Source of the DNA: Acidobacteriota bacterium
GTDB taxonomy: Bacteria; Acidobacteriota; UBA890; WLXD01
Reading direction: 5' to 3'
Assembly (NCBI GenBank): GCA_963666215.2
Contig: CAXWPL010000003.1
Span: forward strand, 128,001-192,000
DNA length: 64,000 nucleotides
The notes beneath the pieces were generated by a model. The model saw only the letters and a list, made by a program, of their open reading frames with translations. It was not told the DNA's origin and made no database searches. This document shows, piece after piece, positions 25,124 through 31,845 of this stretch. Position numbers and translations under genes: made by a program. Position 1 is the first letter of the stretch. Each line of letters starts with the position of its first letter.

Positions 25124-26746
25124 TTGAGCGCCGCCAACGTCAGCTACCCATCAGATCCATCAACAACGCCGGTCTCGGTTCTCGTCCATCTGTCGGGCGC
25201 CGACCGAGGGCAAGTGCGGCGGCTCGATCAGAACATCGTCTACCTCGGCCTTAGAAGCACCGGCAGGGGCGGCACAGGCGCGCCCAAGGTCGAGGTCGGG
25301 CTCGACGAGGGCTACGCCGCCGAGAAGACACTCGTGGTCTTGCGGCGCAGCAATCAGACCTACCGCCTGGAGCCGTTCCCGGGCGTTGACGTTTGGATCA
25401 ACGGTGAGCGCGCCGACACTCAGGCGCTCAACAGCGGCGACGTGATCGAGATCGCCTCGGGCAGTGACGGGCTCGTTCTTCGCTTTCGTCAGTACGAGCC
25501 AGGAAGCGACGCCTACAAGACCCTGGGCGAGGCCTTCGCGGATTGCGTCGAGTGCGCGCGCCACGCACACAGCGGCCCCGAGGGGCTGCGAATGCTCACA
25601 GCCGGGCTGCTGCGAGAGCTCGTTGGACACGTTTCCCCGCTCACCCGCGTGGCTGTGGTCGCGGCTGTGATCCTGTTTGTTGCCGCCCTTGGTGCACTGT
25701 GGCGGCAGAACCAGGCCTTGGAGCGCCGCTTTGCCGAGGAGCGCCTGCGTATTGAGGGCCTCGCGGTACTCCTCGAAGACAGCGAGCGCGAGGCTTTTAA
25801 CGTCGACGATTTCTCCGCGGCACGCGCTGATCTCGACATCCGTATCGCCGAGACTCTGGCGCGCCTGGATGCTCTCGAGAATCGAGCGGGCGCCCGCGCC
25901 CGAGTGATCGCCGAGGCTTCGCGCTCGGTGATCTTCCTGCAGGGCGCCTATGGGTTCGACGATCCCGACAGCGGCCGCCCGCTGCGCTTGGCGAGCGGCC
26001 CGGACGGCCGTCCGTTGCGCGACCCGTTGGGCAATATCGCGCTGAAGCTGGGTGGCGACGGAGAACCTCTCGAGCTGCGCTACACCGGCACCGGGTTCGT
26101 GGTCTCGGAGCTCGGTCACGTCGTGACCAACCGTCACGTAGCACAACCTTGGGATTTCGACGACAACGCCAAGCGCATCCTGGCCAACGGCTTCGAGCCG
26201 GTGATGCGCCGCTTCGTGGGCTACCTACCTGGGAACGGAACACCGCTCGCGATCGGCGTTGTAGGCGTGCACGACGAGGCCGACGTCGCCCTGCTGCGCT
26301 GCGACAGCTCCAGCACAGAGGTCGCGGCGCTCGAGCTGACCGGCACCGTGCCCGAGCTCGGCGCCGAGGTCATCGTCCTCGGCTACCCAACCGGGATGCG
26401 GGCGCTGCTGGCACGCGCCGAGCCGACGTTCGTGGAGCGTGTCACCTCTGGCGGATCGGTGGACTTCTGGAACCTGGCGCGCGAGCTCGCCAGCGGCGGC
26501 TACGTTCAACCGCTGGCCACCGTCGGTGTTGTGGGCCAAGCTACCGTGGGCTCGATTGTCTACGACGCCGAGACCACGCACGGCGGCAGCGGCGGTCCTG
26601 TCCTCAACCTTGACGGCCGCGTTGTGGCGATCAACGCGGCCGTGCTGCCGGAGTTCGGGGGCTCGAACCTCGGGGTTCCGGCGGCCGCGGCGCTGGAGCT
26701 ACTCGAGCCTCAGCTTGTTGCTATTGAGGCTGCGTCGCGGCGTTGA
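25124..26746 (+). CDS. FHA-like domain + TM + coiled coil + trypsin-like serine protease
   Basis: VWINGE..LNSGDVIEI (FHA-like); TM VAVVAAVILFVAAL; GTGFVV, TNRHV, DVALL and GGSGGP triad motifs. Confidence 0.8.
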   Translation: MSAANVSYPSDPSTTPVSVLVHLSGADRGQVRRLDQNIVYLGLRSTGRGGTGAPKVEVGLDEGYAAEKTLVVLRRSNQTYRLEPFPGVDVWINGERADTQALNSGDVIEIASGSDGLVLRFRQYEPGSDAYKTLGEAFADCVECARHAHSGPEGLRMLTAGLLRELVGHVSPLTRVAVVAAVILFVAALGALWRQNQALERRFAEERLRIEGLAVLLEDSEREAFNVDDFSAARADLDIRIAETLARLDALENRAGARARVIAEASRSVIFLQGAYGFDDPDSGRPLRLASGPDGRPLRDPLGNIALKLGGDGEPLELRYTGTGFVVSELGHVVTNRHVAQPWDFDDNAKRILANGFEPVMRRFVGYLPGNGTPLAIGVVGVHDEADVALLRCDSSSTEVAALELTGTVPELGAEVIVLGYPTGMRALLARAEPTFVERVTSGGSVDFWNLARELASGGYVQPLATVGVVGQATVGSIVYDAETTHGGSGGPVLNLDGRVVAINAAVLPEFGGSNLGVPAAAALELLEPQLVAIEAASRR

Positions 26747-27281
26747 CGCGTGCGATGAAGGCGTCGGTCACGTCGAGCTCGGGCGAGTAGTACAGGAGTC
26801 CGCCCACCTGACTGAGCCGTGTGTCGAGGATCAGCCCGTAGCCCTCAGTGGCCGCCATATTCTGCAGCTGCGGAATCAGCGCCGCATTGACCGTCCCGAG
26901 CGCTTCCTCCTGCAGGCGCTGCAGCGCGCGTCGGGCATCGTCCTGCATCCGCGTCAGCTGCACCTGCAACTCCTCGATGCGGACATCCATCTGCGCCATC
27001 GCCCGCGCGTTGAGCGTCAGCGCCTGCTGCTGGCGCGTCTGCGTCAGCTGGGTCAGCTCGGTCTGCGAACCAACGAAGCGCGACTCCCAATCGTCAGCGG
27101 CTGCCTGCACGCGAGCGGTGGCAGCGCGACCCACGTCGGTTTGCTCGGTAACACGCTCGCCGTCAATCAGAACTATCGGCAGCTGCCCCTGAGTGGCCGA
27201 TGTCCACGGCGACCAGGATCCGAGCGCGGCAACTGCGGCAATGAGCATGAGCGGAGTGTTCACAGCCTTGTTGAGATTCAT
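26721..27281 (-). CDS. skp: OmpH/Skp family periplasmic chaperone
   Basis: Signal peptide; IVLIDGERV; long coiled coil; GYGLILD...LLYYSPELDVTDAFI. Confidence 0.8.
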   Translation of the reverse strand: MNLNKAVNTPLMLIAAVAALGSWSPWTSATQGQLPIVLIDGERVTEQTDVGRAATARVQAAADDWESRFVGSQTELTQLTQTRQQQALTLNARAMAQMDVRIEELQVQLTRMQDDARRALQRLQEEALGTVNAALIPQLQNMAATEGYGLILDTRLSQVGGLLYYSPELDVTDAFIARVNAATQPQ

Positions 27282-27656
27282 CGACAGGTCTCCTGAGATG
27301 AGTGTGGAGCGGGTCCGAAGCGTCGCGATCTGACGCAGTAGCCGTTGAGTCCGAAGCTGACGAGATCGCGGATCTGATGGCGAATCGAGCGGCTGCATCG
27401 GCGCCACCTGCGACAACAGTAGTTGACCGCGGGCGACGAGCGCTAGCGCGTCTGCGTAACTCATCCGAGGCCCGTGGGAAGCGCGTGCGGTGAGCGGATG
27501 GACCGGCGTATCGCACGTCGTACTCTCACCGCGGGAGGGCTCTGATTCGCCCGCCTCACCCCATCTCACCATGGTACGCTTGCGCGGCTCGCTCCTCGGC
27601 GACCCTTTTTCGAATTGCGCGAATCACTGTCGAGGTCCCCTCGGAGGCCCCCTCTG

Positions 27657-28475
27657 ATGAAGGCACGCTCCGCGATGTTTGCCACGGCACTGGGAGCGGT
27701 ACTGGGCGTCGTGTTAACGCTCGCAACGCCTGGCGAAGCTAGCGCTGCTTGCACCTGCATGTCGCCGAAACGCCCGGCCTGCGAGGTCTACTGGCAGACT
27801 GCGGCGATCTTCGTGGGGCGGGTTGTCACGATCCAAGCCGAAGAAGCCCCGAGCAACACCGGCGCCAACGACCTCACCAGCACCGTCTCCTCTCAACAGG
27901 ACATGGCGCGTGTGGTGATCATGGAGGTGCTCGAGGACTGGCAGGGGGTCGACGGCGAGAAGCGGGTCGAGGTCCGAACCGGGGCCGGCGGCGGCGACTG
28001 CGGCTTCGACTTCGAGGACGGCGAAACCTACGTCGTGTACGCCAACCGCGCACGCCAGACCAGCCGGCTCGAAACCGGAATCTGCTCGCGCACAGCCAAG
28101 CTCGAGGACGCCGCGATCGACCTCGCCTATATGCGTGGGCTCGCCCGCGCCGATAACACCGCGAGCCTGTACGGCTTGGTGATCCGCGAGCGCCAGGCTA
28201 TCGACCCCACGACGCTCGAACCGGGGCGGCGACCGGATCCCGGCGGACCGTTGCGCGATGTCGAAGTTGTCCTCGAGGGCGACCGCGAGCTCAGGATGCA
28301 GACAACCGACGAAGAGGGCTGGTACAAGTTCGACCAGCTACCTGAGGGCCGCTACCGCATTCAGGTCGTTGTTCCCGACGTCGAAGAGCAGGAGCGCTGG
28401 CGCATCCAGATCCCGGTCACGCCGGCGTGCATCTGGCGCAACTTGATCGTCGCGCCGCTGCCGATCGGCAACTAG
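27657..28475 (+). CDS. Secreted protein with TIMP/NTR-like N-domain and carboxypeptidase-regulatory-like C-domain
   Basis: Signal peptide then CTC; IFVGRV; GGDCGFDF..GETYVVYA; CSRT; TTDEEGWYKFDQLPEGRY. Confidence 0.65.
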   Translation: MKARSAMFATALGAVLGVVLTLATPGEASAACTCMSPKRPACEVYWQTAAIFVGRVVTIQAEEAPSNTGANDLTSTVSSQQDMARVVIMEVLEDWQGVDGEKRVEVRTGAGGGDCGFDFEDGETYVVYANRARQTSRLETGICSRTAKLEDAAIDLAYMRGLARADNTASLYGLVIRERQAIDPTTLEPGRRPDPGGPLRDVEVVLEGDRELRMQTTDEEGWYKFDQLPEGRYRIQVVVPDVEEQERWRIQIPVTPACIWRNLIVAPLPIGN

Positions 28476-28580
28476 CGGAGTGGCCGGCCGCGCTCACCCC
28501 GCGATCGGCACAGCGCCGGCAACCGCAGAGCACCCGGCAGATTGCCTGGTGGCACACAGCCGCCGGTCCGGAGCCTGGAC

Positions 28581-28757
28581 AAAAAAATGCCCGGGCGATT
28601 TCCACGATGGCCTCCCTACAGCTCTCCGTCACCCTCCGGTTCAGCAGTTTCCGTGGCCTTTGCCAAGCCCTTTCAGGTCAACCAGGGCTCCACAGTCTTT
28701 CTGTACCCTCACCGGGCTCCGGATTTCCGCCGTTCGGCCGGGGAAATCGTCCGGACA
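28581..28757 (-). ncRNA. Putative ~170-nt rod-like structured ncRNA (6S-like or Csr/Rsm-like; family not assigned)
   Basis: Upstream TTGACC-N17-TTTATT; 16-position closing stem with one mismatch; nested internal helices; ends in T7. Confidence 0.7.
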
Positions 28758-28763
28758 GGCGCT

Positions 28764-28792
28764 AATAAATCGCAGTCTGGGCCGGAGGTCAA
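28764..28792 (-). promoter_or_regulatory. Sigma70-type promoter for the ncRNA
   Basis: -35 TTGACC (28792-28787), 17-nt spacer, -10 TTTATT (28769-28764), 6 nt before the closing stem begins. Confidence 0.65.
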
Positions 28793-28959
28793 CTCCATCG
28801 CCGCACCATCGAAACGATGCCAACATGAATCTCGTAACCTCTTTGTTTTCTTGCACTTGAAGACGACGACTCTTAAGGTGAACGCTGAACGTTCAGTGCC
28901 GGACGGGCTGAACATCCGGCGCCAGACGGGTCGGGTGTAATCGCGGAGGCGAGCTGGCA

Positions 28960-30042
28960 TTGAACATCGTTCATCTAGATCTACAGCGCGGCTGGCGAGG
29001 TGGCCAGCGGCAAGTCTGGCTGCTTATCCGCGAGCTCCATCGGCACGGCATTTCGCAAGCGATGCTCCACCGAGTCGACTCCCCGTACGAGGAGAAACTG
29101 CGCCAGTTCGACTCGGTGCAATGCATATCAACGCCGACGCGGCTGCGCGGCTTCCTGCGCTCCCCCGCCGCCAGCCGGGCGACCATCTTCCATGCACATA
29201 CGGGCAACACCGTGCCGATCGCGCTGTGGGGCGCGCGCTCGCGGGGTCACACGGTGATTACGCGACGTCTCGACCTGCCCATCAAGCCGTGGATGTTTCG
29301 GCGCGCCGCCCGCGTGGTGGCCATCTCACGGCGCGTCGAGCAGGTACTCGTGAGCTCCGGAATCTTGCCCGAACGGTTGCGCCTGATTCCGTCGGCTGTC
29401 GATTTGGAGCGGTCGCTGGAGGCCGTCGACATCGGCGACCTCCGCCGCGAGCTCGCGATCGCGCCCGACGCTCACGTGGGCCTGACGATCGGAGCGCTCA
29501 CGGAACAGAAGGACCCCATGACGCTGGTCGCGGCCTTGCCCAAGCTGCCGCCCAACTACGTGCACATCTGGGTAGGGGCCGGTCACCTCCTGAGCGAGGC
29601 ACAACGATTGGCCGAATACCTCGGTGTGAAAGACCGGCTGCGACTGACAGGCTTCGACTCGCACCCCGACCGGTGGTTCGCCATTGCCGACCTGTTTGTG
29701 CTGCCGAGCATTCACGAGGGTCTCGGAACGGTGCTTCTCGACGCATTCCATTTCGGCGTCCCGGTGGTGGGCACCGCCATTCCGGCGACCTCGGAGTTGC
29801 TCGAGCACGGCACGTCGGCGCTGCTGTTCGAGCCGCGAGACGCCGACGGCTTGGCCGCCGCGGTGCACGAATTGCTGAACAATCTCGAGCTCGCCAGCCG
29901 CCTGAGCACCGAGGGATCGAGCCGCGTCACCGCCTACGATGCTCGTGACATGGGGGAACGTTATGTCGAGCTGTATCGCGAGCTGATCGACGGCCCCGAC
30001 GCGCACCACAGAGAGCACGCCCGGCAGGCCGTGAGCGGATAG
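28960..30042 (+). CDS. Glycosyltransferase family 4
   Basis: WRGGQRQV, HAHT, ADLFVLPSIHEGLGTVLLDA (EX7E-like). Confidence 0.9.
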   Translation: MNIVHLDLQRGWRGGQRQVWLLIRELHRHGISQAMLHRVDSPYEEKLRQFDSVQCISTPTRLRGFLRSPAASRATIFHAHTGNTVPIALWGARSRGHTVITRRLDLPIKPWMFRRAARVVAISRRVEQVLVSSGILPERLRLIPSAVDLERSLEAVDIGDLRRELAIAPDAHVGLTIGALTEQKDPMTLVAALPKLPPNYVHIWVGAGHLLSEAQRLAEYLGVKDRLRLTGFDSHPDRWFAIADLFVLPSIHEGLGTVLLDAFHFGVPVVGTAIPATSELLEHGTSALLFEPRDADGLAAAVHELLNNLELASRLSTEGSSRVTAYDARDMGERYVELYRELIDGPDAHHREHARQAVSG

Positions 30043-30185: not shown

Positions 30186-30770
30186 GTGCACCCATCCGCC
30201 GACCCGATCGAGACCTTCCGAGAGTTGCAAGCGCGGGCGCGCGAAAGTGAGCCGCACGAGGGCACCGCCGTCTGCCTGGCAACAGCCAACGCCGCCGGCC
30301 AGCCGAGTGCGCGGGTCGTGTTGCTCAAGGGCTTCGACGAGCGCGGCTTCGTTTTCTACACCAACTACGAAAGCCCCAAAGGGTGCCAGATCGGCGAAAA
30401 CCCGCACGGCGCGCTCTGCTTCTACTGGAGCAGCCTCAACACTCAGGTTCGCGCCGAAGGCACTGTGCGGCCGGTGTCGGAGGCCGAGTCCGACGCCTAC
30501 TTCGCAAGTCGGCCGCGAGGCAGTCAGATTGGCGCCTGGGCATCAAGGCAATCGCAGCCCATCGCGTCGCGCGCCGAGATCGAGCACCAGGTCGCTGAAG
30601 TCGACGCCCGATTCGACGGCAGAGAGGTCGAGCGACCGCCTCACTGGGGCGGCTTCCGACTCGCCCCTCAGCGCATCGAGTTCTGGAACGCCGGCGAGGA
30701 TCGCCTGCACGATCGCTTCGTTTACACGCGAACAGCCGATGGCTGGTCGTGCGAGCGCCTGCAGCCTTGA
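30186..30770 (+). CDS. pdxH: Pyridoxamine 5'-phosphate oxidase
   Basis: ARVVLLK, FVFYTNYES, YFASRPRGSQIGAWASRQS, RPPHWGG, RLHDR. Confidence 0.96.
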   Translation: MHPSADPIETFRELQARARESEPHEGTAVCLATANAAGQPSARVVLLKGFDERGFVFYTNYESPKGCQIGENPHGALCFYWSSLNTQVRAEGTVRPVSEAESDAYFASRPRGSQIGAWASRQSQPIASRAEIEHQVAEVDARFDGREVERPPHWGGFRLAPQRIEFWNAGEDRLHDRFVYTRTADGWSCERLQP

Positions 30771-30777
30771 GCCACAC

Positions 30778-31845
30778 ATGAGCCGCCCGCAGCGAGCTCT
30801 CGTGCTCGGAGCCGGCGGACAGGTGGGCGGCGATCTTCTCCTCGAGCTCCTGGCAGCGAACGCGGACGTGATCCCCGTCGACCAGCTGCCGGCGGAGTCG
30901 ACGAACGCGTACAAGAAGCTCACGCAACTCGCGCCGAACGACAGCTGGAGCCCCAATTGGGAGCAAGTCGACGTCACCGACGCGGCCGCGGTTGCCGACC
31001 TCGTGGCCCGCACGCGGCCCGATGTGATCTATCACCTGGCCGCCGTCCTCAGCGCCGCCGGCGAGGCCCACACCGGGCTATGCTGGACGATCAACGTCGA
31101 CGGCCGGCGCAACGTCCTCGACGCGATTGTCGGGCTTCAAGACCGGCCGCCGAACGCGATCCGTTCGGACCGCGGCGACGACGAACGCGGCGCCAACGCG
31201 GCATCCCCAACACTCGTATGGCCTTCATCGATCGCCGCCTTCGGCCTACCTCCGGGCGCCGCTTCCTCTGCGGACGGCTACACCGCCACCGAGGAGTGGC
31301 CGTTCTTCCCGATCACCATGTACGGCGTCACCAAAGTAGCGGGGGAAAAGCTTGGCGAGTACTACGCCCGCCGCTCCAAGGTCGACTTCCGTTCGATCCG
31401 CTTCCCCGGCCTCATCAGTAGCGTCGAGCCTAGCGGCGGCTCCTCCGACTACGCCAACGAGATGTACTTCCGGGCTTCTCATGCCGAGCCCGCCGAGTGC
31501 TTTGTGCAGCGTCAGGCGCGCATTCCTTTCATGCACATGGACGACGCCATCAGCGCGCTGCTCCAGCTCGCCGCCGCCGATCGGGACCGCCTCACCCACA
31601 GCACCTACAACATCACCGCGTTCCCCGCCCCGTCGGCCATGGAGATGGTCGCCAGCATCCAGCGCCGCATGCTCGACTTCTGTGTGACGTACGAGCCCGA
31701 CGGGCGCGAAGTCAACGTTCTCTCGTGGCCCAACGAGCTCGACGACTCGGCAGCGCGCACCGACTGGGGCTGGTTGCCAGAGATCGACTCGCTCGACAAC
31801 ATGACCGACAAGCTACTGGCGGAGTTCTCCGCCGCCCGGCGCTGA
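30778..31845 (+). CDS. NAD-dependent epimerase/dehydratase (SDR-type L-threonine 3-dehydrogenase-like)
   Basis: GAGGQVG, YHLAAVLSAAGE, PSSIAAFG, PITMYGVTK, DFRSIRFPG, GGSSDYA, SWP..LDDSAARTDWGW. Confidence 0.75.
   Translation: MSRPQRALVLGAGGQVGGDLLLELLAANADVIPVDQLPAESTNAYKKLTQLAPNDSWSPNWEQVDVTDAAAVADLVARTRPDVIYHLAAVLSAAGEAHTGLCWTINVDGRRNVLDAIVGLQDRPPNAIRSDRGDDERGANAASPTLVWPSSIAAFGLPPGAASSADGYTATEEWPFFPITMYGVTKVAGEKLGEYYARRSKVDFRSIRFPGLISSVEPSGGSSDYANEMYFRASHAEPAECFVQRQARIPFMHMDDAISALLQLAAADRDRLTHSTYNITAFPAPSAMEMVASIQRRMLDFCVTYEPDGREVNVLSWPNELDDSAARTDWGWLPEIDSLDNMTDKLLAEFSAARR

Follow-up and report, generated by a model that had tools for sequence, protein, structure and literature searches.

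The question raised by positions 28581-28792 of the stretch analysed here is whether the long hairpin read on their minus strand is an RNA gene and, if so, whether it belongs to any known family of stable RNAs. The window, as the whole stretch is called below, comprises 64,000 nucleotides (nt) from an Acidobacteriota bacterium (assembly GCA_963666215.2, contig CAXWPL010000003.1, positions 128,001 to 192,000 of the forward strand). An original prediction, made from the letters alone, had described the locus as a non-coding RNA of about 170 nt, rod-shaped and rich in GGA triplets, with its own promoter and U-tail, which might be a divergent 6S RNA, a protein sponge or a new RNA class. Stable housekeeping and global regulatory RNAs are few (RNase P RNA, signal recognition particle (SRP) RNA, transfer-messenger RNA (tmRNA), 6S RNA and Csr-type sponges), and new biology has been learned from lineage-specific substitutes such as Ms1. 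Our analysis makes it very probable that the locus encodes an independently transcribed, abundant and stable small RNA (sRNA) of ~175 nt, the founder of a family that has no match in Rfam 15 and is confined to one marine class of Acidobacteriota.

The promoter-like hexamers TTGACC and TTTATT spaced by 17 nt, the stem pairing at 15 of 16 positions and the U7 run were all found on the minus strand where they had been described (Table 1). Neither a promoter nor a terminator was called at the locus by a scanner that accepts only -10 hexamers with A as their second base and terminator hairpins with loops of 3-8 nt; this is accounted for by TTTATT, which has no A at that position, and by a terminator stem that is formed by long-range pairing. 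The sRNA is single copy in this genome, and no Pfam match was obtained for the two scanned small open reading frames (ORFs) that overlap it.

Evidence for transcription came from public sequencing runs. Six runs recorded as RNA contain 12-21% of the sampled words of the region 28400-29000, and 14 other runs, of DNA or of unstated kind, contain at least half of them. Four RNA runs from four studies yielded one contig each, together spanning only 28588-28747, with a depth of zero over the remainder of the 601 bases; two of these four contigs carry sequencing adapters at both ends. Because four independent libraries assemble just that piece, the data speak for a discrete transcript whose abundance far exceeds that of its neighbours. 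It counts against this reading that assembled contigs give neither strand, exact ends nor expression level, and that DNA carry-over is possible in principle.

The distribution of the sRNA was determined in the 26 species genomes of the class (G000-G025), which are identical with those of the window's order and fall into two families, f1 (the window's own) and its sister f2, with 35 genomes of other Acidobacteriota (G026-G060) as a comparison set. BLASTN with a 231-nt query gave matches in 6/10 f1 and 10/15 f2 genomes and in one of the 35 others, the latter being weak (E = 0.008). A covariance model built from ten short forms detected the sRNA in all 15 f2 genomes, as well as the 3' parts of four f1 RNAs. 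With G006 added by direct sequence reading, the sRNA is present in nine of the ten f1 relatives, and the sole relative without it is a 77%-complete genome. Outside the class, a covariance search of 139 Acidobacteriota returned two weak matches and no credible copy; both were rejected as chance, one (L083) reading as coding sequence and the other (L084) being a 73-nt partial match without the end motifs of the family. A strict sequence pattern found 12 loci, of which 11 are duplicates of genomes in the set and one (L034) adds a type-A copy. Among the matches listed for a loose pattern in International Union of Pure and Applied Chemistry (IUPAC) codes, many phyla were represented, which is uninformative on distribution, and the 80 loci taken from this pattern included no real covariance-model match, the four obtained being short (16-18 bits).

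Three paralogue types, one to three per genome, were distinguished in f2: type A (178-181 nt, scoring 158-188 bits with the covariance model), type B (178-180 nt, 70-93 bits) and type C (104 nt, 27-40 bits). In f1 there is a single gene, of 353-512 nt in the seven relatives in which it was fully delimited, and within f1 a short form (178 nt) occurs in the window's genome alone. A TTGACA hexamer occurs at the same upstream distance in all 25 f2 copies printed, the f1 long forms have promoter-like elements of the form TTGnnn-N17-TTTGAT, and a U-tract follows the closing stem in every short and long form printed.

Two observations on individual f2 copies were made in passing. The seven copies of type C (L066, L067, L068 and L079-L082) are 91% identical and have a weaker U-tract than types A and B. 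In L066-L068, from one genus, and in L080 and L081, from two other genera, type C ends ~10 nt from a conserved start-like sequence, which in L066 (type C at 1501-1604) opens an ORF for homoserine dehydrogenase at 1586-2635; in L079 the homoserine dehydrogenase gene lies ~160 nt further from the RNA. Type C may thus be a leader or attenuator of this gene. At L086 (G015:C11:50500-51200, minus strand) only the 3' half of a type-B RNA was found, with unrelated sequence in place of the 5' half, possibly a decayed or rearranged copy.

The fold of the 180-nt stretch taken as a single sequence (-76.8 kcal/mol, z = -2.55, with 3 of 200 shuffles as good) is modestly above shuffles, the plus strand giving -64.7 kcal/mol (z = -2.06), and the real proof of the structure is comparative. 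In an alignment of 20 short forms (19 distinct), which was fitted to the model and therefore favours the structure, standard pairs occupy 90.6% of 877 cells and double-sided changes occur at 27 of 51 pairs, values reached by none of 500 shuffles; sliding the partner by 1-3 columns lowers the pairing to 32-42%. A separate MAFFT/RNAalifold analysis of ten sequences found compensatory changes at 24 of the 51 pairs. The closing stem (helix 1) has compensatory changes at 6 of its 17 pairs and 92.6% of its cells paired. The original prediction had proposed Rfam searches and tests of covariation among homologues as checks: nothing in Rfam matched (see below), and the homologues covary. Conservation across relatives, covariation and RNA-library contigs confined to the locus together bear out its claim of an independent non-coding RNA gene.

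Conserved unpaired residues form four clusters. One is a 3x3 purine loop beside the GGCC/GGCC helix, which is itself invariant; a second, towards the 3' end, is an invariant GGGAGGCC-(A)UCG-YG that contains bulged bases; the other two are the hairpin centre and an apical hairpin with a GAAA or GCAA loop. The long forms retain the closing stem, the second helix and the centre. After a helix of ~20-30 bp, their predicted folds open into a multi-branched crown of 4-8 hairpins, mostly capped by GCAA or GAAA and with purine flanks drawn as 4x4 loops; three such folds gave z = -6.4, -6.8 and -2.0. A pattern of GGAAG, short GC helix, GCAA and UGGAA recurs in L002, L004, L005, L010 and G006, in which the GGAAG and UGGAA flanks could form a G.U and four purine-purine pairs. 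A second small hairpin, with the loop UCGUCAGA, also recurs in long forms of different genera (L002, L004, L010 and L085).

The centre of the hairpin has the layout of a standard kink-turn, which, according to PMC8191799, consists of a canonical helix, a three-nt bulge, tandem G:A and A:G pairs and a non-canonical helix. This layout was found in 25 of 26 members, namely this RNA, 8 type-A and 10 type-B copies and 7 long forms; 22 of them were recognised by script and three, lying just outside its search window, were read by eye. The exception is the type-A copy L014, with A for G at position 1b. Position 3n is G and the non-bulged strand reads G-GA in all 26 members, and position 3b is A, G or U, never C. 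The flanking C and NC helices are also supported by the alignment, with double changes at 2/2 pairs and 100% of cells paired in helix 5, and double changes at 6/8 pairs and 89.7% of cells paired in helix 6. By the folding rules of the same source, a kink-turn with G at 3n and a 3b:3n combination that is not Watson-Crick folds in metal ions without protein (PMC8191799). Judged by its sequence, the centre would accordingly be a kink-turn that is predicted to fold with Mg2+ alone and to bend the helix sharply, the kinked three-dimensional shape being likewise a prediction. Kink-turn binders of the L7Ae family were found in 0/61 genomes, and a self-folding kink would therefore be needed.

These features modify how the locus had been described. 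Nine GGA triplets are indeed present in 177 nt, but the expectation of roughly three was too low for this molecule: 5.2 are predicted from the composition of the RNA itself (2.5 from the average of the window), and the excess has P = 0.04 with mononucleotide and P = 0.29 with dinucleotide shuffles. Three of the nine were placed, one in the closing stem (P1), one in the non-bulged kink-turn strand and one in the GGGAGG element, so that the kink-turn and other structural elements explain much of the GGA content. The nested helices exist where they had been proposed, except that CCGGU/ACCGG is replaced by the kink-turn arrangement in the family consensus. Likewise, the rod survives as a long hairpin, one that is predicted to be bent by the kink-turn rather than straight.

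No member of a known family was recognised. Rfam 15 gave nothing on the sRNA when the whole window was searched at gathering scores or when the 801-nt region 28300-29100 was searched at E <= 10, nothing on the RNAs at the loci of 13 relatives (gathering scores), and nothing on those at seven loci chosen to cover types B and C and the long forms (E <= 1); two sub-threshold matches to archaeal C/D-box families in L002 and L010 lie away from the RNAs. The proposal of a new RNA class thus stands at the level of a family. The 6S family RF00013 (gathering threshold 46.4 bits) was not found in the window at its gathering score nor in the whole genome at E <= 10, so that membership of the 6S family is not supported, and the sRNA has no motifs in common with 12 acidobacterial 6S RNAs. 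In the class as a whole, RF00013 was found in 0/26 genomes, compared with 24/35 other Acidobacteriota. The same pattern holds for CsrA (PF02599), found in 0/26 class genomes, including this one, versus 9/35 others, with positive controls detected, and for Hfq (PF17209), found in 0/26 versus 32/35. Thus neither csrA nor another ssrS, both of which had been suggested for inspection, was found in the genome. Without G047, which is flagged as unpublished, the comparison counts become 24/34 for RF00013, 9/34 for CsrA, 31/34 for Hfq and 29/34 for RRM_1. A single RRM_1 protein is encoded in 11/11 f1 genomes (in this one at G000:C1:617433-617645) and 0/15 f2 genomes. An Hfq-dependent sRNA was ruled out by the absence of Hfq matches in the 26 genomes, and a Y RNA by the lack of both a TROVE/Rsr protein (PF05731) in this genome and a Y RNA family match. 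The genes for RNase P RNA, SRP RNA and tmRNA were all located elsewhere in this genome, which leaves 6S as the only classical stable RNA unaccounted for.

How the molecule might work can be proposed from its architecture. The transcript would start at the first base pair of the long closing stem and end at the U7 run right after the other strand of that stem; with U7 directly after the stem, the whole molecule is one hairpin that doubles as its own terminator. Purine-rich internal loops interrupt this hairpin, with a standard kink-turn at its centre and, beyond the kink, an apical arm that is short here and forms a branched, GNRA-capped crown in relatives. We tentatively favour a role as a shape-based protein decoy in the niche of 6S RNA, titrating the RNA polymerase holoenzyme by putative binding in which duplex DNA would be mimicked by the long paired arms and the opened promoter by the non-Watson-Crick centre. 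Consistent with such a role are the complementary distribution of RF00013 and the position of 6S as the one housekeeping RNA unaccounted for, the constant length of types A and B (178-181 nt), the two ~180-nt paralogues per f2 genome, a non-canonical centre that lies, like the 6S bubble, ~45 nt from the 5' end, the strong sigma-70-type promoters with a consensus TTGACA -35 in all 25 f2 copies, and a transcript that assembles alone from metatranscriptomes.

Several observations weigh against the polymerase decoy. The sRNA has no sequence or profile similarity to 6S RNA and shares none of the motifs of the acidobacterial 6S RNAs. Its centre has few unpaired residues (6 + 3 nt, or ~10 + 7 nt if the 2-bp C-stem and the G.A pairs are disregarded) and the pattern of a kink-turn, and a tight kink differs in shape from open promoter DNA. 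The forms of 104 nt and of 353-512 nt fall outside the size range of 6S RNA, and the -10 hexamer of the window's own copy is poor. In addition, 11 of the 35 other Acidobacteriota are likewise without an RF00013 match, and the missing 6S may reflect a general loss instead of a replacement, since Hfq and CsrA were also not found in the class.

The remaining explanations differ widely in their probability. That the locus is not a gene, but a chance hairpin, a gene-end terminator or a repeat element, would agree with the modest z-score of the single-sequence fold and with the silence of the promoter and terminator scanner; it is refuted by conservation across two families with compensatory changes, by promoter-like elements at a fixed distance in the copies printed, by the single copy in the genome and by RNA-library contigs restricted to the sRNA. 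Membership of RF00013 as an ordinary but divergent 6S RNA is comparably improbable: although its size, its rod-like fold and a genome with no other 6S match would suit it, no match was obtained at E <= 10 in either the genome or the 801-nt region, no motifs are common with the 12 acidobacterial 6S RNAs, the large central bubble is lacking, as had been noted from the letters, and no linking intermediate was found in the 139 other Acidobacteriota. A Csr/Rsm-type sponge that sequesters CsrA via GGA, also considered in the original prediction, can be regarded as essentially refuted. The nine GGA triplets and the variation in length and repeat number among relatives recall such sponges, but the class has no detectable CsrA, the GGA excess loses its significance in shuffles that preserve dinucleotides, the apical loop of type A is GNRA and bears no GGA, the long-form folds show recurrent 4-nt hairpin loops, and no Csr/Rsm family of Rfam matched.

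Nearly as likely as the polymerase decoy, and equally to be held with reserve, is a role as modular scaffold or sponge whose partner would be some RNA-binding protein and not RNA polymerase, and in which each GNRA-capped hairpin with purine-rich flanks would be one binding unit, about one here and 4-8 in relatives. In favour of such a scaffold, the number of units varies (178 nt here against 353-512 nt in f1 relatives) on a constant basal rod, the hairpin units are conserved in sequence across genera, and up to three paralogues occur per genome; another global RNA-binding protein is plausible in a lineage without detected Hfq and CsrA, and RRM_1 is found throughout f1, which has the long forms, and nowhere in f2, which has short forms only. 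However, there is no conserved neighbour gene that would point to a partner, this genome has the RRM protein and yet a short RNA, and conservation is strongest in the closing stem and the kink-turn rather than in the variable units. A function of the RNA alone, with kink-turn and GNRA loops building a compact tertiary or multimeric structure for ligand sensing or self-assembly, as in some large ornate RNAs of bacteria, appears improbable. It could draw on a kink-turn predicted to fold without protein in genomes lacking L7Ae, on the GNRA tetraloops of the apical hairpins, for which the invariant asymmetric loops of the closing stem could be receptors, and on the leader-like position of the 104-nt paralogue directly upstream of homoserine dehydrogenase in several genera; against it, no loop-receptor covariation was seen, the gene context suggests no ligand, and the convergent downstream gene here and in f1 excludes a cis-regulator. 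A base-pairing regulator, in which the Shine-Dalgarno-like GGAGG and GGGAGG would recognise C/U-rich targets, for instance the 3' end of 16S or other sRNAs, is similarly doubtful. GGAGG-type motifs are kept in all three paralogue types and the gene stands alone with its terminator, but the G/A segments are already accounted for by the non-bulged kink-turn strand, the 3x3 purine loop and helix P1b, little conserved single-stranded sequence is left as a seed, and Hfq was found in none of the 26 genomes.

A broader and admittedly speculative reading is that a class without detectable Hfq, CsrA and 6S evolved a global regulatory RNA of its own on a different structural principle. This would be a self-folding kink-turn set in a self-terminating hairpin, with an apical arm of one to about eight GNRA-capped, G.A-flanked modules (104-512 nt), which would either replace 6S as polymerase titrator by a new geometry or act as an RNA-only or multivalent assembly that has no known counterpart. 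The main interest of the family lies in this class-wide absence of 6S, Hfq and CsrA, the three best-known hubs of RNA regulation, from uncultured marine Acidobacteriota, in the kink-turn core and in the growth from 104 to 512 nt. If the sRNA does fill the 6S niche, a different fold would be shown to achieve polymerase titration; otherwise the sRNA would mark a new ribonucleoprotein or RNA-only device. The family is a well-bounded candidate for Rfam and a natural test case for the published folding rules of kink-turns, and its transcript marks the class in the RNA libraries examined.

Table 1. Positions in the window of the sRNA, its sequence elements and the contigs assembled from RNA libraries.
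Feature	Position	Strand	Basis or remark
sRNA transcript, ~170-177 nt	28581..28757	-	closing-stem start to U-tract; match of 149.3 bits to covariance model R1 at G000:C3:156580-156758 (window 28580-28758)
-35-like hexamer TTGACC	28787..28792	-	sequence reading; sister-family copies have TTGACA here
-10-like hexamer TTTATT	28764..28769	-	17 nt after the -35, ~6 nt before the closing stem
Closing stem P1, 5' strand, 16 nt	28742..28757	-	15/16 positions pair with 28603-28588, one G.U
Closing stem P1, 3' strand, 16 nt	28588..28603	-	forms the terminator with the U-tract
U7 tract, 3' end	28581..28587	-	directly after the closing stem
GGGAGG, 3' GGCC of helix P1b and bulged UCG segment	28603..28616	-	most conserved family element; invariant columns in alignments A1 and A2
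5' partner GGCC of helix P1b	28739-28736	-	pairs with the GGCC in the 28603..28616 element
Kink-turn bulged strand CCC-GGU-GA-G-GGU	28705..28716	-	C-stem CCC, loop GGU, GA predicted to form G.A/A.G, 3b G, NC-stem GGU
Kink-turn non-bulged strand ACC-G-GA-GGG	28632..28640	-	NC-stem ACC, 3n G, GA, C-stem GGG
Apical hairpin AGCCCU/AGGGCU with conserved CUGGUUGA..GAAA loop region	28666..28689	-	minimum free energy fold; shared with sister-family type-A RNAs
RNA-library contigs, one per run	28591-28742; 28595-28747; 28594-28729; 28588-28731		

The gene lies between two plus-strand genes, one for a CarboxypepD_reg-like protein (27615-28475), which is convergent with the sRNA, and one for a GT4 glycosyltransferase (28960-30042), which is divergent from it. 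The downstream gene is also convergent in the f1 relatives in which it could be identified (L005, L007 and L010), and a role as leader or cis-regulator in f1 was ruled out on these grounds. The neighbourhood gave no clue to function, as no consistent partner gene was found across the relatives, whose neighbours include genes for citrate synthase, an HtrA-like protease, a symporter or PNPOx. Genes for a Trypsin_2 (HtrA-like) protease (25124-26746, plus strand) and an OmpH-like chaperone (26721-27572, minus strand) are located ~1-3.5 kb from the sRNA; in the sister family, the type-A RNA immediately precedes an HtrA-like Trypsin_2-PDZ gene that has the same orientation. The HtrA-like gene near the RNA in both families may be a remnant of a common gene order. 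Further along the window, the 532-amino-acid ORF at 30247-31845 has an NAD-dependent epimerase/dehydratase domain only at residues 184-456, its N-terminal 180 residues giving no Pfam match.

No published description of this RNA was found in the full-text literature, supplements and subscription journals being outside the scope of that search, and the family is best placed by comparison with known systems. It resembles 6S RNA as a stand-alone gene for an abundant RNA with a long interrupted hairpin of ~180 nt, closed by pairing of its 5' and 3' ends, with a non-Watson-Crick centre ~45 nt from the 5' end and with two paralogues in some genomes, as Bacillus has two 6S RNAs; moreover, it is present exactly where RF00013 is not found. 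6S RNA, however, has a large central bubble unpaired on both strands, while the kink-turn-type centre of the sRNA opens to at most ~10 + 7 nt if non-canonical pairs are ignored. The sRNA also differs in ending at its own U-tract terminator, in the 104-512 nt range of its members and in lacking any profile or sequence similarity. Ms1 of mycobacteria is a lineage-specific rod-like RNA, longer than 6S, found where canonical 6S was not detected. Initially regarded as an analogue of 6S, it sets a precedent for an RNA that looks like 6S but plays another role at the polymerase, although it comes from another phylum.

With CsrB and RsmX/Y/Z, the family has in common stand-alone RNAs with terminators, a variable number of hairpin units and several paralogues; unlike them, it occurs in a lineage without CsrA, its placed GGA triplets are not in hairpin loops, and it has no Rfam match. 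OLE, ROOL and GOLLD are large ornate bacterial RNAs, and the branched, GNRA-hairpin-rich forms of 353-512 nt recall them in a general, qualitative way, although this family is much smaller, has no match in Rfam and lies in another gene context. In its kink-turn, the family resembles drum, RAGATH-18, HOLDH and Actinomyces-1, described in PMC8191799 as orphan bacterial RNAs with a standard kink-turn and, like this family, found by comparative genomics. The combination of drum and RAGATH-18 there (-1b:-1n = C:G, 3b:3n = A:G and 4b:4n = G:U) recurs in many members here (PMC8191799). None of those four gave a match to the present family in Rfam 15, and it differs from them in architecture, in taxon and in its modular apical growth. 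We rate it as a new family, which would work like the known stable regulatory RNAs and belongs to none of them.

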